Shown piece by piece: positions 165 through 43,618 of a stretch of 64,000 nucleotides of DNA (position 1 is its first letter; each line of letters opens with the position of its first letter). The stretch is from positions 496,001-560,000 of the forward strand of contig JAUFOR010000001.1 in NCBI GenBank assembly GCA_040285745.1. Direction: 5' to 3'. The stretch is from Barthelona sp. PCE (lineage: Eukaryota). The translations under genes and the position numbers were made by a program. Under the pieces are notes generated by a model, which saw only the letters and a program-made list of their open reading frames with translations, was not told the DNA's origin and searched no databases.

Positions 165-303
165 TGTAGTTGATGGCAATCGGAATCTTGATGCACCCGA
201 AACCTAGATGACATACACTGATAGTGAGAGTTAAAGAATAATCCTAGCTAAGTTACTCGGACTCGAGTAACTGCTTTTCGATTTCTTTCCTGAATTCAAA
301 AAA
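165..303 (+). repeat. Element 1 split direct repeat A1
   Basis: Identical by eye to 6163-6301 (offset 5998). Begins tgtagttgatgg and ends gaattc plus an A-run. Contains a perfect 9-bp hairpin agttactcg-gact-cgagtaact. Confidence 0.95.
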
Positions 304-424
304 AAAAAACCCGTCAAAGATTGATATACATTGAGATTTAAATCCTTTGTTCAATGTCGGGTTATGTAAATGAGGGAATAGAATATCTAAGTTTTGAAAT
401 TTAAAAACATACTGTAAGGAGCCC

Positions 425-1053
425 TTGTTGAGGGCCAGGGACATGGTAGTCGCCACCTTTGAGACTATGTACAGCCTCAGGGACACCCCAGACCTCGGGA
501 AGCTCAAGAAATCGTTTCACTTGAGCGGCATAGTACTACCTGTCCTATTGGCATCCTGGGTGCACACTGTAGATGAAATACCGCTGCTAAACCACAATGA
601 GCCCAGCCCCAGCGGGTTTGGGACAGAGGCAGCAGCGAGGGCGGCAAAGGGGAGCAGTACGCGTTACTCCTCCTCTTTATGGGCATGCCCACAGCGGAGG
701 CCACCGCTGGGATAATAAGAAAGGCAACAGCCGACCTTATCAGGTCGCGTGCAGGAATCGCACAAAAAGCTTGGGATATGCTCTTTGAGCTTGCGATTCC
801 TCAGCTAGATCGCGTCAGACATCTAGCACAAAGTACACGTAGGAAGCCCCAGGCGGCCAGTGACTTTGACGAGGCAGTCTTTAAGGCAGTCCTCAAGCCC
901 GCGAGTAACGTCGCGGAAGTACGTGATGAGATTGTCCCAACGTTCAAGGTGAAATCTCGCGGCGTCTCCCGATATGTCGAGGAGGCGCCTGAGGAGCCTG
1001 AGGCCCCACTTTGGTCACACCACAAGGGGGCACAGACCCAGAGGCCAGGGTAA
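425..1053 (+). pseudogene. Element 1 gag-like ORF1 remnants (frameshifted ORFs 425-715 and 679-1053)
   Basis: Sits directly after repeat A1, where element 2 carries ORF1. No diagnostic motif recognised. Confidence 0.4.
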
Positions 1054-1117
1054 GGATGAATGATTTCCTTACCTCGCTGATAGCAGTCCAAGCCCGAAGG
1101 CTCCTCCAGTAATGGAA

Positions 1118-1218
1118 GAACTGCGAGAAACCCCTAAGAACCACACTTGAGAACTGTGAGAAATCCTTAAAAAACCACGTTGAAAAAACTGTGAGAAATC
1201 CGTAATAACCACTTTTGA
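1118..1218 (+). repeat. Three imperfect tandem copies of a ~33-35 bp unit (aactgtgagaaatcc.taa.aaccac..ttga)
   Basis: Units start at about 1118, 1151 and 1186. Confidence 0.8.
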
Positions 1219-2612
1219 CACTACCAGGACCAGCAGCTACCTCGGCTGTAAGTCCTCCCCGGGAATCCCGGACGTTTTAGACAGGATGGGGGTCATCCCT
1301 GACAGCTCCTCTCGGCAAAGAGCCTTGAACGAGAGCGTCAGCTTCCCCAGCAACTCCTCAAATTCTCGAAAGAGAAGACAGTATCACGCTAGTCGTCTAA
1401 AAACGGTAGTCCCAGTGGTCCTAACCCACCGCGTCCTGGAGCTGACGGTAGCCATAGGCAGTGGCTGAGTACCTGATGAAGATCATCCTACTCACCATCA
1501 TCGGCCGTGGCGTCACCCATGAAAAGTCTAGTTTCATGAGGGCCTTGAGAAAAAATCTCGGTAACCGACGCCACATCTATGGCAGATTGTACGAGGGTCA
1601 TAAACTCCCCTGTGCAACCCCCTACCAGCACCTCGACGCTATTCGTCGACCTCCCGCCCCCTCCTGATGTCCCTAAGCGCAAGCAATCCAGGAGAGTGTA
1701 GGCAGGAGAAAGTGAGATGACGAATCTCTCACTTGTAAATCCCAGTTGAGAAACTGTCCGCATCTGTTATGCCGCCACAGCACCGTGAGGCGCTAGTTGG
1801 CCCGCATAACGACACCTTTTTCTCGAAATTCGAGGTTTATTGGAGGATCAAAGGCGCAGAAAGCGTAAAGCTGAAGCACGAAAAAAAGCGTCATTATCCC
1901 CAAACTTAAGGCAGATCTAGCGGCTGCCTCCCGCGATAGGGACTTATACATGGATATAGCGCTTGTCGCATCCCTATAATCCCACATTATCGCACCAGAA
2001 CCTGTTGAGGAGTTGCCACCAACACCAACACCAACACAACCTCACATATCCCCAGTTGTAGGCCCAGTAGGACCTACCCTGAGTGCTGAGTGGTTCAAAA
2101 CCGCCTTAACGTTGCGGTGCAGAAAAATGCCAGGCCATTCTCAGCCAGCATGGATGAACCCCAGCGTGGAGCGAGTGAGACAGTAAGTATACAGGCCCCT
2201 GACCTAACTGGTTGGGCTGAGCCATCTCCGCCAGCGTCTCTTGTGGACGCTATCCCCGGCCTAAAAATACGAGAGCTAGGAATATATCTAGACAAGGCAG
2301 AGAAATTCATGGAGTATACGTTACAGACGAGCCCACATGCGCCTCGTCAAACCCGTCAACGCATCGATACTATGAAAAAATCGCAGGTTTAAGTGACGAC
2401 CATTCCACCAACCTCCAATCGATGTTGACGCACGGAATATGCGCCCATCACGTCATGAGTAATCAAAAAACGTTTCTCAAATCCGTAAAAGACCGTTTAA
2501 CGGTCCATAAGAAAACTGGTTTGAGGATGGATCGCGCATCTCCCTCCTAGTACAGGAAAAGATAGAAAAAAGCGACGCCTTTGTTAAGCTGGATCATGAC
2601 CCAGCTTGGGAA

Positions 2613-5600
2613 ATGTCGAAACCTCCTGTTGGCGTAAAAACAGCTTTTATTAAAATCGGTGTGGTGCCCAAAGGCATCGAAAAATCGGCCATTGTCGCCC
2701 TCAGCCAAGACTGGGCCAGCCGAGAAGACATTGAGGAGTACTTCGAAGATGTCTCAGTAAGTGATATAAGAATTATTACTGATTGCACCCCGATTAACGA
2801 CATGTTTAACATGTTCCCAATGGAACTGCCCAAGGTGCGGTTATTTAACCTGGTAAACCCGAACGATGATTTGTTCTCCATCGATGCATCCAACGGCTTC
2901 CATCTCATCCCCATTGCGGAAGACTTTCAAAAGTTCTTTACATTTTCCCTCAACGGTGGCTTTTACCGGTGCACAAAGTTGTGCTTCGGAGTCACGTTTG
3001 GCCCCGCTATATTCTCAGCGTTGATGAACCTAGCCCTAGCGCCTATGCGTGCTCTAGGTTACCAACTATGGGCCTACATAGACGATGTTTTCGGATGGCA
3101 ATCCCCAGATCGAAGAGGCAGATACCGTAGTGCCAGCGACGCCATGCGTCTGCTCAAGCTAATCTGTTTCTGGTTGGATATCACTATCAACAAGAAAAAA
3201 TCTGTCGAACCATGTAAGAAATTAGATGTGATAGGTTTCACCATCACATCTACCTTTGGACCGCCGGACGATCCAAATATGAAAGTGGCATTAGCACCAA
3301 GTGATGCTAATTGCCGTAAGATCGCGCTAAGGGCTCAAGAACTGGCCCACAAGCTTCATGCAAGGAAAAAAAGACTTCGTAGAACTTGCATCGAAGTGCA
3401 CGGCGTTTAGAGCTGCTAGCAGAAAGCTACATGTCTCCGCCATTACGATCAATGCCATCATACACGAAGCACTAAAGAAAAGAAGAAAGGATAAAGATGG
3501 CATTCCTGGAAAAATAACCAAGTGGCTCATGACGAGATCGCTCACGATCGGCGATCAAGACCTGAAGGAGGTCCAGCATCATGAATACGGCCAGATCGAG
3601 GCCCAGCCAAAGGCAACAGACCCTACCAGCGGGTCTCCACTTGGATTCATTGGTACAAACGAGGCACACCACCTCGCGTGTACCCTTGCGAGTTTAGCCG
3701 ATCACGATTTTCCACCACAACCCCTTCTTTCCACCAGGAAAAAGCGGGTTTTTAATAAGTGACGCTGCTGTAAGTGAAGAGAAAATAAGTATCGCAGGCA
3801 CAGCTTTCGCAACGGATGATGTTGACGAAACCTGTTTCGAACACCTGCTACTTCGCAGTGGAGGCGGCATTGATCTTGCCAAGAATGAACTCATCGATAG
3901 GCTGAATATGCTATCAGCAAAAGATAAAGCGAAAGCGATCCAGAAAACAAAACTGTCGATCGCTTATGCAGAGACGGAACCCCTGATGGCTATGCTGCAC
4001 AGCCTCGGGTCCAAGCTATCCAACGGATATCTCGTTTTAGTATTGCGATAACACTTATGTGGTAGCTGCGACGTACAAACTAACGTCGTGCAATACTGTC
4101 CCCAATGATGCTGCCCGGACCTTGGCAAGAATATTCTGCCGAGAGAAGGACCTTGTTGTGGAAGCGATTTACGTTCCCTCTGTACTTAATCACCTTTCGG
4201 ACATGGCCTCGCGTGGAGAGCCAGTCTGCTGGAAACAATCGAGGGGAACCTTCCTTCAAGAGCTCGTTCCCCCAAAGGAGATTATAATTCTAAATTCTGT
4301 CGTCCCAAGCGCTTATGAGCCGGGCCATACCAGCCCCCCTCATAGCGAGAGCAAAACAGGACAAGAGCGGCCGCTCAGTTGGCTGCATCCGGGTAATGAA
4401 CTTGTTTCGAAAAACACTCTAAAACTACTTAGTGTTTATGCCCGTATCGAGACGACAGGGACTGCCCAAGTTAATGGCACCCTTCTTAAAACTGAGAGAA
4501 GACAAAATTGATACAACACCAGTGTTTGAGGGACTGGAAGATATAATATACACAGTCCCCCGCTCTAAACCGAAGTTTGAGATAGATATGATCGGAAGAG
4601 AGAGCCACACAGTCGAACAGATGGTCCCTGCCCAGTCAGCAGCAGCGGCGTTAGAAATTATTTTACTAGCGGCCCTTAGGACCGGTGTTACTATCAGAGA
4701 AGTTACCACAACCTCTCCCATCCACACCCGTGTGGGGTATGGTATCGCAGTTCGTTCGTCCATGGAAAGAAATGTGCGAAATTACCATCAACCCGGAAAA
4801 AATTTTTCCCTGTCAAATCAAAGGCTGTACAAGCAGGAAGCTTGTGGAAGGGCGACACTGACTTCGTAAGGATAGATGTCCCCTTCATAGTGAGGAAACA
4901 TTTCAGGTTTCCAGCCGAAATAATGAGAGTAGACGAACTCCTGGCGCTGTTCTTAAGAAAAGGTTCCTTAAGCACAGCCAGGACCGCCATCAAGCGATTT
5001 AGACAGTACATTGAAGCTAATCAGAATGCAATAAGGAGGATGTATGGCTGGATAAAAAATCCAAGCCACTGCAAACTGTTAGTAGGTTTACGCATAGCTG
5101 ACCTAGTGGAGAGAGCCGAAAAGGGCGAATCGCCCGAAGGCAACACAGCCCAAATCCTGCATTACAAGAGTAGCACTCTTGATGCATAAGGATCCCTTCT
5201 AAGAAACTCTTTAAGAGTTATTAGACTGCTTACAACCGGCTGCTGGGAGGACGCCTGAGATACAGACAGGCAGTACCTCATTTCAGCTCGTACAAAGATC
5301 ATAACCGACGAAAGCGGAGCAATCCCCAAATCACACAGTTATAAATGCGCTATAAGAGCGTCTGTGGTCCAGAAGCTGCTGTTCCTCGTCCAAGAGAGAG
5401 CCCACGAGACTATCGTAGAGCCCCAAAAGGACAAAAAATTTCTCCACGAGACCAAATAAGTGCTATGGTCTCACAGGAGGTGGAACAATGCATCCTGGAC
5501 TGCCAAATACTGTCGATCCACTACATTCTCGGTTGTAGATCGGGAGAATTGAATTTTATAGAAAAACGACACCTTGAGATCACTCTTCATGAAAACAGCA

Positions 5601-6062
5601 TGGAGCAATCCCTCTCAGTGATAATCCCAAAGCGTAAAACGCATGGGAAAAGCCGAAAAGGACGTTTTGTAACAACTCCCCAAAAAATATTGGTACGAAA
5701 GTGTATTTGCGCCGTTTACTGTGCATGTACTCGAAACAAAGCGGCAGGGCACCGCGTTACTCCTCAGTAGAGGAGCAAAAGACCGGGAAGCAAAAATTCT
5801 AAAAAGGTTTAACACCGTCTTTGACGATCCAAACCTCATAGGTGCACCGCCTGGAGCGAGATTCAACCCCCACGCCATAAGAGCGGGGAGATGCCAAGAT
5901 ATTATCAAAATTCATGGTGACAAAGACACAGCCAGACAGATTGGGGGCTGGAGCGCCAATGAAACCATGAATAAGTATTACCTGGATATTCACGACCTGG
6001 AGTACGCCATGCCGGGGGAACTGTACAGTATAAACCAGATACGAGAATGGGCGGTATCTTGA
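2613..6062 (+). pseudogene. Element 1 RT-RNase H-linker-tyrosine recombinase, disrupted by frameshifts and stops
   Basis: RT motifs IGVVPK, RIITDC, FSIDASNGF, LCFGVTFGPAIF and YIDD (3075-3086). RNase H motifs SDA (3758), *YCDN (4038) and NHLSDMASRG. YR motifs LGCRSGEL, HAIRAG (5871) and GGW. All are collinear with element 2 ORF2 but spread over several frames. Confidence 0.88.
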
Positions 6063-6162
6063 TTGATCCGTACCCGTCCTGTCTAACGGTTCGTTCTGTC
6101 TGCCCTCCCAACATGCAGGCTGTCACTTCAGTAAACCATCCAAGGTGTAGGATAGAGGATAA
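6050..6162 (+). repeat. Element 1 repeat B1 (contains the YR stop codon)
   Basis: First 24 bp recur at 6575-6598 and the remaining 89 bp at 12681-12769. Confidence 0.93.
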
Positions 6163-6301
6163 TGTAGTTGATGGCAATCGGAATCTTGATGCACCCGAAA
6201 CCTAGATGACATACACTGATAGTGAGAGTTAAAGAATAATCCTAGCTAAGTTACTCGGACTCGAGTAACTGCTTTTCGATTTCTTTCCTGAATTCAAAAA
6301 A
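6163..6301 (+). repeat. Element 1 repeat A2
   Basis: Direct copy of 165-303, abutting B1. Confidence 0.95.
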
Positions 6302-6574
6302 TTAAAAAAGACAAAAAAACCAGAAAGTTAAATTTCAAGCATAAATCTTCGAAACTTTTTGTTGTTTTTCCGTGAGCTTGGAAAAAACTACTCCGCACAC
6401 ATTCTGTGCTGGATTATCCAAGAAAGTCTTTCATCATCTTCTGCATAAATTATATCCTAGTGCAGAAAGAACGCAGGTAAGTTTTATCAAGAAATTTTAC
6501 AAAAAATTTCATCATATTTTCTCAATAGCGAGACAGTTAGCCACTAATCATGGCTCTACGGGTACGTAGCGTGC

Positions 6575-6598
6575 GGCGGTATCTTGATTGATCCGTAC
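6575..6598 (+). repeat. Element 1 repeat B2, left part
   Basis: ggcggtatcttgattgatccgtac = 6050-6073. Confidence 0.9.
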
Positions 6599-6731
6599 GG
6601 TGACATACAGGCGCTAGCCTTCAGACTTTATACTTGAGGTAGTAAACAGCGGAGGGGGACGAAGCGAACCGTCATGTGTAGTAGGTGTCCGTAGGACCCG
6701 ATACGGTTTTTCTTACCTTTTTCAAAAAAAA
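6599..6731 (+). repeat. Element 2 repeat A1
   Basis: Identical to 12449-12581 (offset 5850). Ends in a ccgta/tacgg hairpin, a T-rich tract and an A-run. Confidence 0.95.
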
Positions 6732-6768
6732 TCTTACTTTAGTATTGCTGCGCAAGAAATTAATTGCA

Positions 6769-8265
6769 ATGACATACTTTAGAGCGGAAAGGCAAACGAA
6801 AGAACAAGTTGCGCGCGCTATCCAGCATAGATGCGAGACGTATATTGCGCGCCTGAGTGTCGTGGTTATGGAGACCTTGTGCAAGGTCCACGAGGCGGAT
6901 CCCGCCGGTAAAGCCCACCTGATTGAGGCTCTCCCGAGTTACGGGCGCGGCGAGTTCGCCGACGTAATGCTCTCACCGTGCGTGTTGAGCGAGGACTTCC
7001 GGGGGTGGTTACAAGCATTGGGCGAAGATGAAAGTCAACAAGGTGTTGACAAGGTCCTTCCAGCAATTTCCTTTAGCCTAGAGAGGTTTAGGGAACTTGC
7101 AAATCTTTTCGGCATGCGCCCATCCGAGTCATTAGCCAAGAATATTGAGGAGTCGGACATTAGAGGAGTCCGGGAGATGATTAGAGCTGCCGCAAATCAC
7201 TGGAAGGCAGCTCCGGCTCTCATAACGCAGGAACTGGATGCGTTCACGGCAGCAAGGAGGGAGGCTGACAAGATCGAGGGAATATCGGACGTCGACAAGA
7301 AACAGCTCATCAAGACGATTACGCAACAGGTAACGCATGCGAAGGAGCAGGCGCTGAACGAGACGCGGAAGCAGACAATGGCCGCGTGGGAAGAAGAACC
7401 ATCCGATGACGAGACCGACACCCAGCACACGTCTTCGAATGCAGGAATGAACACCGCCATGCAGATCGCAAGGGACGCTACCGCTTTGGTGAGCGAGACG
7501 ATGAAAGAGGCCAGGCAGAGTAGGATGAGAGCCACAACCTATAACGAACCTTTCGATGCGGGCATCCAACAAGACAAACTACTCAGGAAGGTCAAACACC
7601 AATGGCAAAGAGGTCTGACATACGATAAGTTTACTGCCGCCATGGACAAGTTCCTCGAGGCGGAGATAAAGCGCAACCCCACGATCTTCGCTGGCGACAT
7701 TGATCTCGGGCTCTGGAAAGTGGACGACGTCCTTCCGGACGCGTTTGTCGAGGAGGTGACGGACGACCACAAGGATAATTGGTTCCGCGAGTGGCAAATT
7801 CGTCTGAGGGACTTCAAGACGATCTACGAGGACAAGGTCGGATCCCAGTATGAACACGAGTGGCAAACCAAGCGTTTGTACTTACTGATGGAAGCCGCAG
7901 CGGAAATGGCGTTGGGAGACACTCTCCTACTAATCGGCAAGCTGTATGAGGAACGGCCACACCTCATCCCGACCTTCATCGCTGCCGTCTCTCCATATGG
8001 TCCCAGCCGGGCCAACAGGGCGTCAGGTATCTACAACGACGAACTCAACGTCGACCACGTGCCTGACAACTGGGTTGACGAGAATCGCGTGAAGCAATTC
8101 CTCACTAAGACGCTGGGAGTCGGTAGCTCCGGCATCATGGTCGAGTTTGACCCCACCGCCACCAAGAAGGCGTTCAACCATTCCACGAGAGCCCCCAAGC
8201 GCACGCACCGTCCTAAGACGCAAAAGAAGAAACAAGCGTTTAGCGCCAAAGAGGAGGAGAAGTGA
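6769..8265 (+). CDS. Element 2 ORF1, gag-like helical protein (498 aa from the first ATG)
   Basis: First ATG at 6769, just after repeat A1. Occupies the gag position. Basic C-terminus; no CCHC knuckle seen. Confidence 0.7.
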   Translation: MTYFRAERQTKEQVARAIQHRCETYIARLSVVVMETLCKVHEADPAGKAHLIEALPSYGRGEFADVMLSPCVLSEDFRGWLQALGEDESQQGVDKVLPAISFSLERFRELANLFGMRPSESLAKNIEESDIRGVREMIRAAANHWKAAPALITQELDAFTAARREADKIEGISDVDKKQLIKTITQQVTHAKEQALNETRKQTMAAWEEEPSDDETDTQHTSSNAGMNTAMQIARDATALVSETMKEARQSRMRATTYNEPFDAGIQQDKLLRKVKHQWQRGLTYDKFTAAMDKFLEAEIKRNPTIFAGDIDLGLWKVDDVLPDAFVEEVTDDHKDNWFREWQIRLRDFKTIYEDKVGSQYEHEWQTKRLYLLMEAAAEMALGDTLLLIGKLYEERPHLIPTFIAAVSPYGPSRANRASGIYNDELNVDHVPDNWVDENRVKQFLTKTLGVGSSGIMVEFDPTATKKAFNHSTRAPKRTHRPKTQKKKQAFSAKEEEK

Positions 8266-8334
8266 AATCGTTCGTCTCCCCCCGCGCGTGATAGTAAATA
8301 TCTATCTGACAAGGGTGTGGGAGACGCAAATGAT
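8263..8334 (+). promoter_or_regulatory. Candidate stop-codon readthrough signal: TGA plus 3' stem-loop
   Basis: TGA at 8263-8265. cgtctccc (8273-8280) pairs with gggagacg (8319-8326), extendable by atcgtt/aatgat. Confidence 0.55.
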
Positions 8335-11300
8335 CCCAATGCGGTCACAGCGCTCGCGGACAGGGTCGGCGAGCTCTCCATCGAGAACGTCAAATTGAAG
8401 AAGGAGATCAAGAGCCTCAAGAAGGAAATCCCTAAGAAGCAGCTCAAAGCCGCGAAGATGGAACTTCGCGCAGCTACCAAACTCGTGGAGCTCGAAGACA
8501 AAAGACTAGAAGCCATTAAAGCTCGGGAAAGGAGCACACAGAAAACAAAAGCACCTGAGGACGTTAAACGGGATAAGCCCCGTAAGGAGAAAGCACCAAC
8601 AGCTACTAGCGTGCAGAAGATGATCTCCAAGGAGATCAACAAACTCAAACACGAGGTTGTAGATGAGCGGAATAACGTCCAAATCTCAAGGAATCCGAAG
8701 GAGGTAGTCGGCACAGACACCATGCAGTGGCCGGCCGCGGCGCCACCAGTAGCTCTGCTGAAGCACCTCCCACCCGACATCTTCCAGAAGGGCGGCCCAA
8801 GTCAACGAGTACTCAAAGAGGTGGTCCTAGGGGTTACCGGAACATGGGATATCCTCGGAACAGACCAGATGAAGATCAATTCAGCCGACACGCCCACGGA
8901 ACAGTTCGTTAGGGACGCCGCGCGCGTCGCTGGCCTCAGCTGCGAAGAAATTGAGAAGACAGTCCGACTGCTCGTGACTGAGGGCGTAACGCGCGACATG
9001 GTCGTTATCGAAGGAAAGAAGCCTCGCAGGCAGGAGCCAGTACGTCACTGGTACAAAGACGACGCCGTCGAATTGAACCTGGCCGTAACCGCGCTCAAAA
9101 GTAAGGACCTGATCAAAGAGGTCCCCATCGAAGAGATCGAGGACGAACGAAGGGCATTCATTTCCATCGGCGCGGTCCCGAAGAATGCAGAACCGGACTC
9201 AAACAACATGTTCGCTCCGACGCAGAAGTTCGAATTTGACGTCACATCGCCGGACAACGAGCACAGGGTTATCGTCGACTGTACTAACACGAACTCTATG
9301 TTCGCCAACATTCCAATGGAACTCATCAAAACCCACTCTCTCGAGATTGTCATGGGTGGCAATCTCATGTATTCCGTCGACGCAAAGGATGGTTTCACGC
9401 TCATTCCACTGGACGAAGAGCTACAAAAACTGTTCTCATTTACACACGAAGGTAAGCTTTATCAATGCACTAGAATGCCGTTCGGAGTTTCATTCGGCCC
9501 GGCCATCTTCGCCCGCATGATGAACCTGGCAACGACCGCAATGCGTGCGTTGGGATTCAACATCTGGAGCTACGTCGACGACGCTTTCGGATGGGAACGA
9601 TCCCTCAGCAAAGCGAGGAACTCGATGATGCTGTTCATAATCATCGCGTCGAAACTTGGCATCAAGCTAAACTACAAAAAGTCCGTCAGTCCTTCGTACA
9701 AATTGGACATCATCGGCTACACGCTGAGCACCGACGACCAGTCTGACGGCGGCCGGCTAGTCTCAACAATTAGACCGTCGGACAAGAACATCAGAAAGAT
9801 CAAAGAGATGGCTCGCGTAATGCGAAATAGAATCGACACAGCAGAACAAATCCCTGTCAGGGACATCATGAAGCTCGATGGCAAACTTGTATCATTTGCC
9901 AACGCTTCGACGATTCTTCAGCGGGTTCACCTACAGCTACAAGCAGTACTGAAGGATCTCGACGCCCAATACGATAACGCGATATTTGACTCGAGCAGGA
10001 ACAAGGGCCTACGCCTTCTCCTACCTCTTCCACTAGCCGACGCACTCACGAGGATCGTTGAATGTAACTTTGAACCGAAGACGCTGAGCTGCGGTAGAGC
10101 TAAGGTAACATTACTGAGCGACGCCATGAAGGACCAGAAACATATAGGCATTGGAGCGAAGGCATACCCAGACGACGACCAAGAGCTCTCGTTTGAACTT
10201 CTCCACAGGATGGGAGTGAACGAGCAAGGAGCAAGAAGGATGTTGACACTTCTCGACGATCTGCCAGAACAGGAAAGAGTAGACATCGAGCAGAACACTG
10301 TCGCAACAATCGCGGAGCAGGAGATGGTACCGATCGTCGAGCTACTCAAGACTAAGGGCAGACAGCTGAGGAACACCGAAGTCGTCTGGTATTGCGACAA
10401 CACGAACGTATGCGCCGCTGTCGCGAAGGGCTACAGCAAAAACAAGGTCCTCAACAAGGGGGCCCGCATAGTGATGGAGCTGTGCGAAATGTGGGACGTG
10501 ATCGTCACACCAATCTACATCAACTCAGAACAGAATTATCTTCCAGACAGCATCTCAAGAGGAGCATCGTCGGAGTCGTGGACCAACTCTACGACATTCG
10601 TGCACGAGATTCTCCCAGCTAGGGTAATCGAGTTCAAGACATCCGTCGTCGCAAGCCTCTACGAACCTGGACACATCCCAGCACTGTACGTCCGCGGTTT
10701 CCAGCCCACAAAAGGAAAGTCCAGGAGATCAACGAAAGCCGCACATGTGACAAGACAATGTCTCGGACAAGACCTTATCTCTCTAGGCGAGTATGACCTC
10801 AAACGGAATGCGCTCAAGGTCGACAATGTTGCGAATGGGACTGCACACTGTACAGGTAAGCTCAAAATCGTCGAAGGATTCGATGACACAAGATACACCG
10901 TCCCTCTATCGAATATGGCGATCATCACGAGAGACAACGAAAGAATCGAGGCAACAGTTCCGACTTACTCCGCAGCCACAAGCTTAGAGATAGTCATTCT
11001 CAAAGTGTGCAGAACCGGCGCGGAAGTAGATGTGATCCTCCCCGGACCACTCCCGTCTTGCCCATTGTGGGCTACAATCGCACAAAAGACCATCCCATTA
11101 AGTGACGGATCCATAAAGATAAGAGTTACGAGAGAAAAGGTTCTCGGCGGCGAACCCGAGGACTACAAGCCCGCTGGAGCACGCACTCAGAACCCGGTAC
11201 AGGTACGGGGCAAATCACTATCTCTGGCAGACCTGTTCGCCATCCCACCGTCGATGGACTACGACGAAGTGCTCGAACTCTTTCTGAAAAAAGGAGCGCA

Positions 11301-12432
11301 CCAACCAACGAGGAACATGCTACATCGCTTCGGGAACTTCGTTCAAAAGGTGCACAGCACAGAAATAGTGGACGTCGCATGCCCAGGAAACGAAAAGAGA
11401 CTTGAAGAGCTGATAATCGAGTTCAGATTCAGACTCGAACAGGAAACAAAATCGAAGAGGCGTGCGAACGGCGACACCACCGAAGTATGGAGGTACACCT
11501 CAGACACGATTAACAGTTACATTTTCCACCTGCGTAAAGGACTGCTGGTTCTGAAAATGTTCATCACCGACAAGAAATCTCTCCTCACGACCGAAGAACT
11601 CGAGCAACTCGTCCAGCTTAGGGCGGCAGTAATCAGATGCACACTGAGCGAGAGCTCAGAAACACAGAAATTCGCCATCAGCACGTCAGCAATCAGATTC
11701 CTGGCGGCAAGAGAGATTGAAGAGCTTAAAGCACTGGTCCAGGAAGGTACCACGAAGAAGAAGGCCCTTCAGAAGCTAAACAAAGTAAGAAGAAGAATTG
11801 CTATGATGTCATCAATGTACAACTTAGGATGCAGAGCGGCGTCTCTTGCCGCAGTCAAGACCCACCAAATTGAAGTCTCAAAATCCGGCGATGTCACGGT
11901 AACGCTGGACAAAGTGAAGAACCAACAGGGTCGACCAACCAGCTACATGATCCCCAGAAACGTATGGGAGCTGGGCACACTGCACGACTATTTAAACGAC
12001 GCTGTGCAAAGAGCAAAAGAAGGAGGTAAAGAGTTTATTTTCTCGAACGGCGGAGAAGCCCAGAGCGTCTCGAATGCATTAAACACCATGTTCCGAGATT
12101 ACAACGAGAAAATCAAGCAATCTGACCACAAGAATGCAAGCAAATTCAGAGTATTCAAAATGACAGCCCATGGCCTTAGAGCCGGCAGGGCAAAAGAGAT
12201 AGCACAACATCCAGATGCGACTGTACGAGTATCAGCGCAAGGAATGGGTCTCTGGAAGGATGTGAAGGCGATGAACCTTGACTATCTCACGAAACCACTA
12301 TTGACGTTTGAGGAACGAGAGGTGTTGAGTCCGATGGAATTGGAAGGATGGGTTTTAGGCCACTTCCCGGACGAAACACCCTCTACACGTGAAGGCGAGC
12401 CTTCCCACGTGAGCGTTCCCCGACGTCAATAA
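8266..12432 (+). CDS. Element 2 ORF2: reverse transcriptase-RNase H-linker domain-tyrosine recombinase fusion, in frame with ORF1
   Basis: Open from 8266; first ATG at ~8458. RT motifs AVPK, RVIVDC, SVDAKDGF, MPFGVSFGP and YVDD (9571-9582). RNase H motifs LSDA, AEQE, WYCDN and NYLPDSISRG. YR motifs LGCR, KVK, HGLRAG (12169), GLW and DY. Confidence 0.92.
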   Translation, partial: NRSSPPARDSKYLSDKGVGDANDPNAVTALADRVGELSIENVKLKKEIKSLKKEIPKKQLKAAKMELRAATKLVELEDKRLEAIKARERSTQKTKAPEDVKRDKPRKEKAPTATSVQKMISKEINKLKHEVVDERNNVQISRNPKEVVGTDTMQWPAAAPPVALLKHLPPDIFQKGGPSQRVLKEVVLGVTGTWDILGTDQMKINSADTPTEQFVRDAARVAGLSCEEIEKTVRLLVTEGVTRDMVVIEGKKPRRQEPVRHWYKDDAVELNLAVTALKSKDLIKEVPIEEIEDERRAFISIGAVPKNAEPDSNNMFAPTQKFEFDVTSPDNEHRVIVDCTNTNSMFANIPMELIKTHSLEIVMGGNLMYSVDAKDGFTLIPLDEELQKLFSFTHEGKLYQCTRMPFGVSFGPAIFARMMNLATTAMRALGFNIWSYVDDAFGWERSLSKARNSMMLFIIIASKLGIKLNYKKSVSPSYKLDIIGYTLSTDDQSDGGRLVSTIRPSDKNIRKIKEMARVMRNRIDTAEQIPVRDIMKLDGKLVSFANASTILQRVHLQLQAVLKDLDAQYDNAIFDSSRNKGLRLLLPLPLADALTRIVECNFEPKTLSCGRAKVTLLSDAMKDQKHIGIGAKAYPDDDQELSFELLHRMGVNEQGARRMLTLLDDLPEQERVDIEQNTVATIAEQEMVPIVELLKTKGRQLRNTEVVWYCDNTNVCAAVAKGYSKNKVLNKGARIVMELCEMWDVIVTPIYINSEQNYLPDSISRGASSESWTNSTTFVHEILPARVIEFKTSVVASLYEPGHIPALYVRGFQPTKGKSRRSTKAAHVTRQCLGQDLISLGEYDLKRNALKVDNVANGTAHCTGKLKIVEGFDDTRYTVPLSNMAIITRDNERIEATVPTYSAATSLEIVILKVCRTGAEVDVILPGPLPSCPLWATIAQKTIPLSDGSIKIRVTREKVLGGEPEDYKPAGARTQNPVQVRGKSLSLADLFAIPPSMDYDEVLELFLKKGAHQPTRNMLHRFGNFVQKVHSTEIVDVACPGNEKRLEELIIEFRFRLEQETKSKRRANGDTTEVWRYTSDTINSYIFHLRKGLLVLKMFITDKKSLLTTEELEQLVQLRAAVIRCTLSESSETQKFAISTSAIRFLAAREIEELKALVQEGTTKKKALQKLNKVRRRIAMMSSMYNLGCRAASLAAVKTHQIEVSKSGDVTVTLDKVKNQQGRPTSYMIPRNVWELGTLHDYLNDAVQRAKEGGKEFIFSNGGEAQSVSNALNTMFRDYNEKIKQSDHKNASKFRVFKMTAHGLRAGRAKEIAQHPDATVRVSAQGMGLWKDVKAMNLDYLTKPLLTFEEREVLSPMELEGWVLGHFPDETPSTREGEPSHVSVPRRQ

Positions 12433-12680
12433 ACCTACTTCAGTATAAGGTGACATACAGGCGCTAGCCTTCAGACTTTATACTTGAGGTAGTAAACAGC
12501 GGAGGGGGACGAAGCGAACCGTCATGTGTAGTAGGTGTCCGTAGGACCCGATACGGTTTTTCTTACCTTTTTCAAAAAAAAAGGTTTTAGGCCACTTCCC
12601 GGACGAAACACCCTCTACACGTGAAGGCGAGCCTTCCCACGTGAGCGTTCCCCGACGTCAATAAACCTACTTCAGTATAA
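12351..12680 (+). repeat. Element 2 3' end: B1 (12351-12448), A2 (12449-12582), B2 (12583-12680)
   Basis: B1 and B2 are identical 98-mers; A2 matches A1 with one extra A. Confidence 0.95.
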
Positions 12681-12769
12681 CCGTCCTGTCTAACGGTTCG
12701 TTCTGTCTGCCCTCCCAACATGCAGGCTGTCACTTCAGTAAACCATCCAAGGTGTAGGATAGAGGATAA
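12681..12769 (+). repeat. Element 1 repeat B2, right part (element 1 right end)
   Basis: Identical to 6074-6162. Confidence 0.93.
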
Positions 12770-12896
12770 GCTATGTCTGCTTTTCACCGTCGCATTTTAT
12801 ATGTCAAAATTGCCCTATCTAAACCTCATTAGATGTTTAGAAATGAGTTTATAAGTTGTTATTAATAGCAATGAATAATTTCCGAATAGCAGTTCA

Positions 12897-12968
12897 TCGG
12901 GCGTCGTATAATGGCTATTATTCCGGTCTGTCGCACCGGAGACCAGGGTTCAATTCCCTGCGCTCGAG
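12897..12968 (+). tRNA. tRNA-Asp (GTC)
   Basis: Acceptor tcgggcg/cgctcga, anticodon arm ccggt-ctGTCgc-accgg, T-arm caggg-ttcaatt-ccctg, followed by a T-run. Confidence 0.93.
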
Positions 12969-13044: not shown

Positions 13045-13116
13045 TCCCCTATGGCTAAGTGGTATAGCGCTGCACTCGTAATGCAGTGGTCCCCAGTTCG
13101 ATTCTGGGTGGGGGAA
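13045..13116 (+). tRNA. tRNA-Thr (CGT)
   Basis: Acceptor tccccta/tggggga, anticodon arm ctgca-ctCGTaa-tgcag, T-arm cccag-ttcgatt-ctggg, downstream T-run. Confidence 0.93.
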
Positions 13117-13681
13117 CGTCCTTTTTTTTTGCATGCGAACTGTTATGCCTCCCTACGTGTCTGTGGGGGTTCAGTAACGTGGTGGACGCGTCCGAAGGCG
13201 TCCGAAAAGGCAGCAGGCGTGTGGAAATATTTTTTTGTGTTTGTTGAATGATGGAAGCATGTGGTTGACGGAACTCATGGCAGAGTGAATCTGTGACTCA
13301 TGAATGTGCTGTCCGAATTACGTCCTTTATCGTACATTCCGGATTTCTCTTTTTTACTATTTTTTATGGGGTGGGAACTCAATTACCCGACCTCGAGCTT
13401 AGGAACTTATTCACGCCATCCAACTAGATATCTGTCAGTAAACATGCATGTATCCGAGAGAACTCAGCCCCTGTGAAGTCATCTCTTTTGTAGAACCAAA
13501 AAACTCATTTTTTATTATCATTCCATTGAGTTTAGAGTTACCTGAACTCGCGTTGTCTTAGATCTTTACGATACCCATGTTTGCATATCCAGCTGTGCTT
13601 TTGCCAATAATTCAAGAAAGATATGAATGAATTAAAAAGAAAGCAAGCTGCAAATATCTGTTTTGTGTCTTTGAAACTCCT

Positions 13682-32233: not shown

Positions 32234-33404
32234 CTAGCGAGCAGACTGACCGAAGGCATCGAAGAATGATGGGTCTACTGCAGTCTTTGCAACAACCTCA
32301 TTATTAACCTTCTGGGTGGTCTTAAACATATCGTCCTGCTCCTTGAGTGTGTTCTGAAGTTTTCTCTTCTCATCTAAAAGCTGACGCTTCCTCAAACGAT
32401 CCATTTTAGTCAGCTCGTTTCTGATACGCTGTTCCTCCTGCGCATGTCTTGCCTCGACATTTCTCTCTGCTTCATCACGCTGTCTCTTCTCCTCAATTTG
32501 ACGCAATTGAACCTGTCTGATTTCATTGAGGTTCTCCTTGCTGAAACCCTTGAACTCGTATGTTACATAGCGATTGTTTTCGTTCAACTGGCGCGACGCA
32601 TCCTCCATGAAGAAGGGAGATGTGTTGATGGCTTCCAGCTCCTGTTTCTTTTGTAAGTCAGATTGGCGCTTTTCCTCGGCCTCCTTATACTTACGCATGT
32701 CAGCAAGAGATGCGTTCTCGTTAAGAACGTTGTTGAGGGCTTCCTTCTGAAGGGAGTTGAACGTTCCTGTGAGTCTTTTCATCTGTTCGTCAAGAGAAAG
32801 AACAAAAGCATCGTAGTTGGCGTTTTGAATACGTTCGGCTTCAGCCTTTGCATTCTTAATGGCAATCTGCTCCTCGCACCACTGCTTCTGCTGTTCGCGT
32901 TGAAGTGCCTCACGCTCTGCTTTACCACGATCTTCACCAGCGAAAATCTGCATGGAAGCAGGACCGAGTTCAGATTCGGGCAATGGCTTCTCCTTCTTGA
33001 GAGCCTCGGGATCGTACAAGTCATAATCGAGTCTGTTCTCCTTCTTCTGATCTTGCATTCTGAAATTTTCAAGTTCAGCGTTGACCCTCCTTCTTTCACG
33101 GTCTATGTCGCGCTGGATCTTGAGGATCTTCTGCTCATTGCTGAGTAATAATTCGTCTAATGCACGATCTTCCATAGCTTCCTTTGCTTCCCTCTGTTTT
33201 CTTTCCTCGACTTGTTGTTGAAGGAAATCGACATCAAGCTAAACGTAAGTGACCCACTTTGCTATTATATGGTAAACATACACCGATTTGCCTAGTTTTG
33301 TCATCCAAAATTCGTTGACGACGTTCTTCAAGCAGTCTGCGACGGTTTGCGATGACCGCCTCTGCCTTTTTTTCCAATTCAATCTGGATTTGTGCACCGT
33401 TCAT
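32234..33404 (-). CDS. RIB43A: RIB43A-like ciliary microtubule inner protein; two exons (33404-33282 and 33238-32234)
   Basis: Splicing out 33239-33281 joins ...RRQRILDDKTRQIG to LDVDFLQQQVEERK..., the RIB43A N-terminal motif. Also DYDLYDP..LKKEKP, GPASMQIFAGED, EFKG and FFDAFGQSAR. Confidence 0.88.
33239..33281 (-). other. 43-nt spliceosomal intron, phase 0
   Basis: Minus strand reads GTATGTTTACC...CACTTACGTTTAG. Removal restores the frame (41 + 21 codons up to the ORF-track Met). Confidence 0.88.
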
Positions 33405-41849: not shown

Positions 41850-42280
41850 TATATAAAAAAATAAAGGGAGAAAATGTGAAGGCAGGTTTTACAAATTTTC
41901 TTGTAGATTTGTTTAAAAATGTACATATATATACGAAAATCAGGCGAATTTGGTGGATTCATGTGCAGCTACACGGTAGTATTATTTTTCAGACCACTAT
42001 TCAAAGGTGCCATATCGGTTTTGCTTCTATTAACGCTTATTTGAATTTTTACTTCAGTTATCATGTGTAAATACAGCAAAGTGCTGCTATACACACTATT
42101 CAATATCTTTAAGGATTGTTCAGTCTTGCAATTTGTTTTTTTACTTTAACAAAGTCTTTTGTACTGTATGTTGTGAAAATGAGCTTGTTGGCCTATGCGC
42201 GCTTCATATAGAGCGTGCGCGTGTGCAAAAAATGGCTTTTTAGGAATTTTTTAGAAGTTTCTTACACTTAGATTTGAAAT

Positions 42281-43618
42281 ATGCGTGAAATCGTCCACAT
42301 TCAAGCCGGCCAGTGCGGTAACCAGATCGGTGGTAAGTTCTGGGAGACCATTGCTGATGAGCATGGTGTCGATCCTACTGGTTCCTATCAGGGTCAATCC
42401 GACCTCCAATTGGAGCGTATCAACGTTTACTTCAACGAAGCTGCCGGTGGCAAGTATGTCCCCCGTGCCGTTTTAGTTGATCTTGAGCCTGGTACTATGG
42501 ATTCCATTCGTGGTAACGCTTATGGCCATCTTTTCCGTCCCGATAACTTTATCTTCGGTCAGACCGGTGCCGGTAACAACTGGGCCAAGGGTCACTATAC
42601 CGAGGGTGCTGAGCTCATTGACTCCGTCCTCGATATCGTCCGTAAGGAGGCTGAGTCTTGCGACTGCCTTCAGGGTTTCCAGATCTGTCACTCTCTCGGT
42701 GGTGGTACTGGTGCCGGTATGGGTACCCTCCTCATTGCCAAGATCCGTGAGGAGTATCCCGATCGTCAAATGTGTACTTTCTCCGTCGTTCCTTCCCCCA
42801 AGGTTTCTGATACCGTCGTTGAGCCTTATAACTGTACTCTTTCTGTTCACCAGCTTACTGAGAACTCTGAAGAGACCATGTGTATCGATAACGAAGCTCT
42901 TTACGATATTTGTTTCCGTACCCTTAAGCTCACCACCCCTACCTATGGTGACCTCAACCACCTCGTTTCCATCGTTATGTCCGGTGTTACTTGCTGTCTC
43001 CGTTTCCCCGGTCAGCTCAACTCCGATCTCCGTAAGCTCGCTGTTAACTTGGTTCCTTATCCTCGTCTTCACTTCTTCATGGTTGGTTTCGCTCCCCTCA
43101 CTTCTCGTGGTTCTTCTGCCTACCGTCAGATCACTGTTCCCGAGCTCACTTCTCAGATGTTCCACTCTGGTAACATGATGGCTGCCTCTGATCCTCGTCA
43201 CGGTCGTTACTTGACCGCTTCCGCCCTCTTCCGTGGTCGTATGTCCTCCAAGGAGGTTGATGAGCAGATGCTTAACATCCAGAACAAGAACTCTTCTTAC
43301 TTCGTTGAGTGGATTCCCAACAACATCAAGTCTTCTATTTGTGACATTCCTCCTAAGGGTCTTAAGATGGGTGTTACCTTCATTGGTAACTCCACCTGTA
43401 TCCAGGAGCTCTTCAAGCGTGTCCACGATCAGTTCACCAAGATGTTCCGTCGTAAGGCATTCCTTCACTGGTACACTGGTGAGGGTATGGACGAGATGGA
43501 GTTCACCGAGGCTGAGTCCAACATGAACGATCTTGTTGCTGAATACCAACAGTACCAGGATGCCGTTGCTGAGGAGGAAGGCGAGTACGAAGAGGAGGAA
43601 GATGACTTCGAGTACTAA
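42281..43618 (+). CDS. TUBB: Beta-tubulin
   Basis: MREI start, GGGTGAGMG motif, acidic tail, strong codon bias. Confidence 0.99.

Follow-up and report, generated by a model that had tools for sequence, protein, structure and literature searches.

A probably bypassed in-frame stop codon between gag and pol of a Ngaro-type retrotransposon in Barthelona sp. PCE

We analysed 64,000 nt of genomic DNA from Barthelona sp. PCE, a barthelonid flagellate that is free-living and anaerobic (assembly GCA_040285745.1, contig JAUFOR010000001.1, positions 496,001 to 560,000). This stretch is hereafter called the window, and all coordinates refer to it. The window contains a recently active Ngaro-type tyrosine-recombinase (YR) retrotransposon, at 6599-12680, whose gag-like and pol genes lie in one reading frame and are separated by a single TGA. 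Programmed bypass of this stop codon, all mechanisms taken together, is well supported and in our judgement highly probable. The leading mechanism is UGA readthrough stimulated by a hairpin predicted directly downstream; judged from the layout of the junction and an in silico fold, it has about an even chance of being the right one.

Gag and pol lie in one reading frame

Self-comparison of the window, followed by base-by-base reading, delimited the element as an intact copy on the + strand, the younger of two related elements. The frame that opens at ATG 6769 has a single stop, TGA 8263-8265, and then remains open to TAA 12430-12432, for a total of 498 + 1 + 1388 = 1887 codons. Reading of the sequence thus bore out the initial annotation, which had described gag and pol as sharing a frame with one TGA and no further stop until 12430. 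The junction reads ...GAG AAG TGA AAT CGT TCG TCT CCC..., and the open reading frames (ORFs) are arranged as follows.

6769..8262, + strand: ORF1, gag-like by position, an orphan protein of 498 codons (ORF reading)
8263..8265, + strand: in-frame TGA between gag and pol (sequence reading)
8266..12432, + strand: ORF2, pol, 1388 codons plus TAA, with the first in-frame ATG at 8458 (ORF reading)

The stop codon is probably shared among copies

The only protein cluster that contains gag has five members, with Barthelona sp. PCE as the source name, and one of them, P0003, equals the translation of the window except at the junction. No gag-only gene model was found in the protein search. All five public gene models drop the same 33 nt around the TGA as an "intron":

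8262..8294, + strand: 33-nt "intron" of the gene models, GT...AG, probably a prediction artefact

At this point the window translates as ...KEEEK*NRSSPPARDSKYLSDKG... and the models have ...KEEE-N-KYLSDKG... (EEEK*NRSSPPARDSKYL versus EEE-N-KYL). Because the same 33 nt are dropped in every model, and the predictor would otherwise have had no reason to drop them, each copy would carry the stop. The five modelled copies are spread over three contigs and comprise at least three sequence variants, and a stop common to these variants would predate their divergence. In the initial annotation, a sense codon in other copies had been named as the sign of a nonsense mutation in a single-ORF element; all five models skip the stop, and neither a stop-free nor an intron-less copy is on record among them. 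The TGA is probably not a private mutation of the window copy.

Further copies were compared with the window through contigs from two of three sequencing runs, the third yielding none, with 8164-8480 lying outside their coverage. These contigs differed from the window at 12 single bases, all of them transitions, of which 10 were synonymous and two were conservative missense changes. The synonymous share was 3/4 in gag and 7/8 in pol, and 10 of 12 departs from the neutral expectation of one third with P = 5e-4. Both missense changes are variants that are also present in other gene models. The substitution pattern indicates that gag and pol are both under purifying selection in lineages carrying the stop. 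Such selection on pol in stop-carrying variants would hardly be expected of a dead family and suggests that pol is expressed despite the stop.

Searches for relatives returned the family itself. Against 1.84 billion protein representatives, ORF1 matched only its own family cluster. When the search was confined to proteins of near-equal length, pol matched only its own cluster and gag matched none; among longer proteins, gag again matched only its own cluster.

The public models have further peculiarities. P0002-P0006 fuse host genes to the element, as seen in the N-terminal extension of P0002 and the C-terminal ABC-transporter part of P0006, and they bridge lesions by short predicted introns, hence the chimeric proteins in the databases.

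A hairpin is predicted directly downstream of the stop codon

The RNA downstream of the TGA is predicted to form one extended structure:

8267..8334, + strand: predicted hairpin of 68 nt and 22 bp, bulged (ViennaRNA fold)

Its GC-rich core stem of 8 perfect bp (8273-8280 with 8319-8326) begins after a 7-nt spacer. The initial annotation had pointed to this stem and had called it extendable. Both points held: an outer stem of 6 bp, including one G-U pair, joins 8267-8272 with 8329-8334. In the ViennaRNA fold there are also 3 bp between 8281-8283 and 8313-8315, plus a 5-bp stem at the apex.

The minimum free energy of an 83-nt fold was −27.8 kcal/mol (z = −2.83), a stability reached by 1 of 200 dinucleotide shuffles. 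The 70 nt 3' of the stop folded at −27.0; this was equalled by 11 of the 1865 in-frame 70-nt segments of the element (top 0.6%) and by 0.22% of 6393 segments across the whole 64 kb. In a 251-nt context, the pair probabilities of the core stem were 0.67-0.75, about 0.74. According to these models, the hairpin is more stable than chance and notable by its position, and it is not unique in the element. An Rfam search of 6000-12800 at E ≤ 1 gave no match, hence no selenocysteine insertion sequence (SECIS) or known recoding element. A pseudoknot involving the hairpin loop was considered and rejected, as inspection by eye found only a 4-bp partner.

Coding resumes upstream of the first ATG of pol

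There is no ATG between 8266 and 8457. The 64 codons between the TGA and ATG 8458 are free of stops, which would occur by chance in about 5-6% of cases. Over 8296-8457, 5' of the first ATG, codon usage is normal for coding in the element frame (+28 nats), and all 64 codons from the TGA to the first ATG scored +22.9 against a control of 20.7 ± 4.9. Judged by codon usage, coding resumes by 8296, ahead of ATG 8458. A coiled-coil stretch lies in the same region, and its heptad-like sequence reaches ATG 8458 and carries on beyond it. Normal codon usage 5' of ATG 8458 and a coiled coil running across it argue against independent translation from that ATG. The initial annotation had considered translation of ORF2 from ATG ~8458 on its own or a spliced mRNA, and the coding signal at 8296-8457 speaks against it.

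By contrast with the codons that follow, those immediately after the stop score poorly.

8266..8295, + strand: ten codons directly after the stop, whose codon usage is the least typical of coding sequence anywhere in the element (margin −5.3 nats, a value as low being reached by 1 of 1812 ten-codon segments)
8344..8442, + strand: coiled-coil or bZIP-like stretch (Pfam bZIP_1, E 3.6e-4, below the cut-off)

The ten codons correspond to the 5' arm of the hairpin plus the first bases of its loop. Their composition would be either dictated by RNA structure or that of untranslated sequence.

Hairpin-stimulated readthrough as the leading mechanism

In the mechanism that we favour, a full-length RNA would carry gag and pol in one frame, split by the conserved UGA. 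Most ribosomes would stop at the UGA and yield Gag. A minority would decode the UGA by a near-cognate tRNA and produce a 1887-residue Gag-Pol comprising reverse transcriptase (RT), a putative RNase H and the candidate tyrosine recombinase. With the UGA in the A site, the GC-rich core of the hairpin would sit at the mRNA entrance of the ribosome and favour readthrough.

Readthrough is the most economical explanation: apart from in-frame splicing, no other mechanism requires gag and pol to share a frame. It is also favoured because the 7-nt spacer and the bulged stem of 8 + 6 + 3 bp fall within the range of proven signals. Known readthrough signals have spacers of 7-12 nt and stems of 10-14 bp (Firth et al. 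2011, PMC3159437). More specifically, the spacer is 8 nt in murine leukaemia virus (MuLV), 8-12 nt with stems of 10-12 bp in alphaviruses and 7 nt in furoviruses, and one Drosophila gene combines a UGA-A context with an 8-nt spacer and 14 bp (PMC3159437). Of the programmed UGA readthrough proposed in the initial annotation, the bypass, the sharing of the stop and the spacing of the hairpin all found support; that the bypass takes the form of readthrough is what we infer from these.

Several observations weigh against this mechanism. The stop in the other four copies is read from gene models and not from DNA, as the contigs omit the junction. Metagenome, viral and protein searches yielded no diverged relatives for an analysis of covariation, and the copies found are at least 99% identical. 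The poor codon usage of 8266-8295 fits an untranslated gap as well as it fits an RNA signal, and about four other sites in the element fold as stably as the hairpin. The stop context, AAG-UGA-AAU, has neither the C nor the CGG after the UGA and is not a classic leaky context. Finally, Tca2 of Candida albicans, a Ty1/copia element, has an in-frame gag-UGA-pol with a predicted 3' structure, and its pol is produced from a gag-pol RNA, yet the Tca2 junction failed to direct readthrough in an S. cerevisiae reporter and held a minor promoter (PMC2194720). Tca2 is a long terminal repeat (LTR) element, and the element described here is of the tyrosine-recombinase type; the case of Tca2 cautions against taking the layout by itself as proof of readthrough. 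Our confidence in readthrough stands near even because of the UGA-A context, a stem that comes from a fold and the failed Tca2 precedent.

Alternative explanations

Pol might be made without decoding of the UGA. This could occur from an internal promoter, by a non-AUG start (GTG 8317), by termination-reinitiation or by a ribosome hop from AAG 8260-8262 to AAA 8296-8298 or AAG 8311-8313. Ribosome hopping has a precedent in gene 60 of phage T4. The look of the ten codons after the stop agrees with such routes, as do the matching Lys codons that flank the gap and the position of the stop directly 3' of the take-off codon. A parallel exists in Tca2, whose junction held the minor promoter and whose bypass was judged non-canonical (PMC2194720). 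None of these routes needs a shared frame. Under them, pol would have fallen into the frame of gag with a chance of 1 in 3, and the 64 open codons would be a further accident with a chance of 5-6%; the absence of an ATG from 8266-8457 also counts against them. Taken jointly, we consider these routes unlikely.

A second alternative takes the 33 nt at 8262-8294 for a genuine mini-intron, with unspliced RNA yielding Gag, spliced RNA yielding Gag-Pol and the efficiency of splicing setting the ratio. All five gene models contain this GT...AG intron, and RNA-seq mapping, GeneMark-ET, AUGUSTUS and PASA all went into the annotation (PMC11316075), so that RNA support is possible. The genome paper gives a mapping rate above 99% for the RNA-seq reads of the species. 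The length is a multiple of 3 and the atypical codon usage coincides with the 33 nt. The host does have very short introns. The ORF of its RIB43A gene lacked the start of the Pfam profile; profile positions 2-32 are covered by an upstream exon of 41 codons (33282-33404) and positions 33-372 by the main ORF, and between the two lies a verified 43-nt intron. A splice-motif scan alone gave no convincing intron, and that of RIB43A came to light through the truncated Pfam match. The two host introns that served as the yardstick are the following.

33239-33281, minus strand: spliceosomal intron of 43 nt in the RIB43A gene, starting GTATGT and ending CTTAC-GT-TTAG
42166-42271: probable intron of 106 nt in the leader 5' of the tubulin ORF 42281-43618; its end motifs match those of the RIB43A intron

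Measured against these, the candidate in the element starts GTGAAA and has neither the GTATGT nor the CTTAC-NN-TTAG motif of the host. The gene models, moreover, hold other short "introns" that cut conserved RT residues: P0002 omits the LDIIGY block, which is invariant with respect to the RT of the older element. They also bridge frameshifted stretches and fuse host genes, evidence that the predictor bridges lesions. The supposed intron would contain the 5' arm of the hairpin and the exon its 3' arm, with the AG inside a stem, and not one of the five copies is intron-less. A real mini-intron seems to us very unlikely. The same small weight goes to a combined proposal, namely that the 33-48 nt after the gag stop remain untranslated, through either a Lys-to-Lys hop past the 5' arm of the hairpin or the regulated removal of a non-canonical mini-intron together with the stop.

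The TGA might instead be a nonsense mutation that a now immobile family has inherited, with an incidental hairpin after it. Consistent with this, four of the five modelled copies have further lesions (skipped or frame-shifted stretches), there is no stop-free relative to show the ancestral state, and hairpins of similar stability occur elsewhere in the element. Against it, the stop is common to at least three variants whose differences are predominantly synonymous (10/12 overall, 7/8 in pol), and the window copy is otherwise open over its 1887 codons with near-identical repeats. The stop also lies exactly at the gag-pol boundary, followed at canonical spacing by a hairpin in the top 0.6%. We give this explanation little credence.

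A reading of TGA as a host sense codon was rejected: TGA terminates three of the 32 long host ORFs, and no long ORF depends on reading through a TGA. The 32 ORFs, from 13682-63966 of the window, end in TAA (18), TAG (11) or TGA (3). The base after the stop is T at each of the three host TGA codons and A at the TGA of the element.

Comparison with known systems

The junction resembles that of the gammaretrovirus MuLV, in which gag and pol likewise share one frame interrupted by one stop, with an RNA structure about 8 nt downstream, in a position to act where mRNA enters the ribosome (PMC3159437, PMC4178896). MuLV uses UAG, a compact pseudoknot and a specific purine-rich spacer, whereas the element described here has UGA and a long bulged hairpin. 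The class of element also differs: unlike in MuLV, neither a protease nor a DDE integrase is recognized by Pfam. In its UGA stop, 7-nt spacer and bulged stem, the junction also resembles the extended 3' stem-loop signals of the alphavirus type (PMC3159437). Those stems are supported by covariation and reporters and often have loops of 100-270 nt, as opposed to an in silico fold with a structured loop of 38 nt here. The UGA-CGG or UGA-C context of the alphavirus type is absent from the element.

Among YR retrotransposons, the closest counterparts are the Ngaro elements described from Cafeteria burkhardae. These have the layout A1-[ORFs]-B1A2B2, a length of about 6 kb and a gag-like ORF1 followed by RT/RNase H and then YR, and they also insert into other mobile elements (PMC8547959). 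The Ngaros described there have three separate ORFs, whereas here RT to YR form one ORF and gag is in frame with it across a single stop. Elements of the DIRS-1 or DIRS1-like and VIPER/TATE groups combine RT/RNase H, a tyrosine recombinase and an orphan gag-like ORF1, as the present element would with its putative RNase H and candidate YR. Unlike the present element, DIRS elements have inverted terminal repeats and an internal complementary region. The ORFs of DIRS-1 or DIRS1-like and VIPER/TATE elements often overlap heavily in different frames; two TATE copies of Bodo saltans have a single-ORF form, for which no stop is mentioned (PMC6681497). More generally, the YR retrotransposon literature available to us describes three ORFs, often overlapping, with YR either in or out of frame with RT/RNase H.

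In the portions of the literature at hand (including PMC6681497, PMC3783388, PMC3266345 and PMC9210276), we found no report of stop-codon readthrough in a YR retrotransposon; an earlier description is possible in the reviews of Goodwin, Poulter and Butler. What we infer is that a Ngaro-type element in a deep-branching metamonad carries an in-frame stop signal of the retroviral kind, and we claim no priority for it. To our knowledge, the balance of Gag to Pol in tyrosine-recombinase retrotransposons is essentially unstudied. If the proposed mechanism is correct, a conserved gag-UGA-pol with a hairpin would extend retrovirus-style recoding to YR retrotransposons. It would also provide a natural reporter of termination fidelity in barthelonids, a deep-branching metamonad lineage some of whose relatives have reassigned stop codons. 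Were the hop or the mini-intron true instead, the ratio of Gag to Pol would be set by a means new among retroelements; in the case of a hop, no nuclear gene of a eukaryote would have shown programmed translational bypass before. As matters stand, the protein databases misrepresent the family: in all five public gene models the stop is lost within a 33-nt intron that is probably spurious, and neighbouring host genes are joined to the element.

Protein domains of the element

The initial annotation had described the readthrough product as a gag-RT-RNase H-X-YR protein. The RT is clear and the candidate YR has motifs judged by eye together with a sub-threshold profile match; the labels RNase H and "X" could not be confirmed.

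9331..9726, + strand: reverse transcriptase domain (Pfam RVT_1, E 1.4e-14, 54.8 bits against a cut-off of 29.6)
10069..10605, + strand: putative RNase H region (motif judged by eye only)
11752..12207, + strand: candidate tyrosine recombinase core (Pfam Phage_integrase, E 3.9e-4, 20.7 bits, below the cut-off of 27.1)

An H-x-x-R motif from 12169 and a candidate catalytic Tyr at 12283-12285 were both seen by eye. The putative RNase H region had no Pfam match and the linker between RT and YR had none in the ESM Atlas; a single-sequence AlphaFold model had a predicted local distance difference test (pLDDT) score of 43 and was unusable. ORF1 matched no Pfam family and had no usable match in the ESM Atlas. 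Pfam found neither rve (DDE integrase) nor a protease in the element proteins, and a sequence search of the PDB with the C-terminal part of pol returned one meaningless match. On the minus strand, an antisense ORF of 249 codons (8031-8780) spans the junction of gag and pol; the richness of the sense strand in A (AT skew about 0.26) probably accounts for it.

The element, its repeats and its surroundings

The younger element has the split direct repeats A1-[ORFs]-B1A2B2 of the published Ngaro description (PMC8547959). Their ends were set by self-comparison and read base by base.

6599..6731, + strand: A1, the 5' split direct repeat (5' untranslated region and presumed promoter), matching A2 at 12449-12581
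12351..12448, + strand: B1, containing the last 27 pol codons and the TAA, 100% identical to B2 over 98 bp
12449..12581, + strand: A2
12583..12680, + strand: B2, the 3' end of the younger element

By BLAST, A1 and A2 align over 136 bp, three flanking bases included, at 99.3% identity. With near-identical repeats (A 99.3%, B 100%), the copy has no lesion besides the TGA. It lies inside the B2 repeat of the older, related element and integrated without a target-site duplication: put together, the left and right flanks reproduce exactly the target as it survives intact in its second copy at 6050-6162, with the join at 6073/6074. The assignment to the Ngaro type was made by repeat layout, RT and mode of integration. 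A further example of an Ngaro element is Ngaro1 of zebrafish.

165..6598, + strand: older degenerate related element, with A1' at 165-309, ORF remnants at 2511-6062, B1' at 6050-6162, A2' at 6163-6309 and the start of B2' at 6575-6598
12681..12769, + strand: rest of B2' of the older element, 89/89 bases identical to 6074-6162

The RT of the younger element and the remnant of RT in the older one share 40% identity. The coding part of the older element is broken into at least 8 frames, too broken for a gag-pol junction of its own to be located within 165-6598. Despite this, the repeats of the older element (165-6598 plus 12681-12769) are 100% identical (139/139 and 113/113 bases). It may be a non-autonomous copy that was moved in trans, or the assembly may contain indel errors. 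Between its A2 and B2 repeats lie 265 bp (6310-6574) with no match elsewhere in the window.

The surrounding host genes are dense and nearly intron-free, and flagellar genes are among them. Genes for tRNA-Asp(GTC) (12897-12968) and tRNA-Thr(CGT) (13045-13117) begin 128 bp past the end of the nested elements. The adjacency may be fortuitous, or the elements may target the neighbourhoods of tRNA genes, which is known from other compact genomes.

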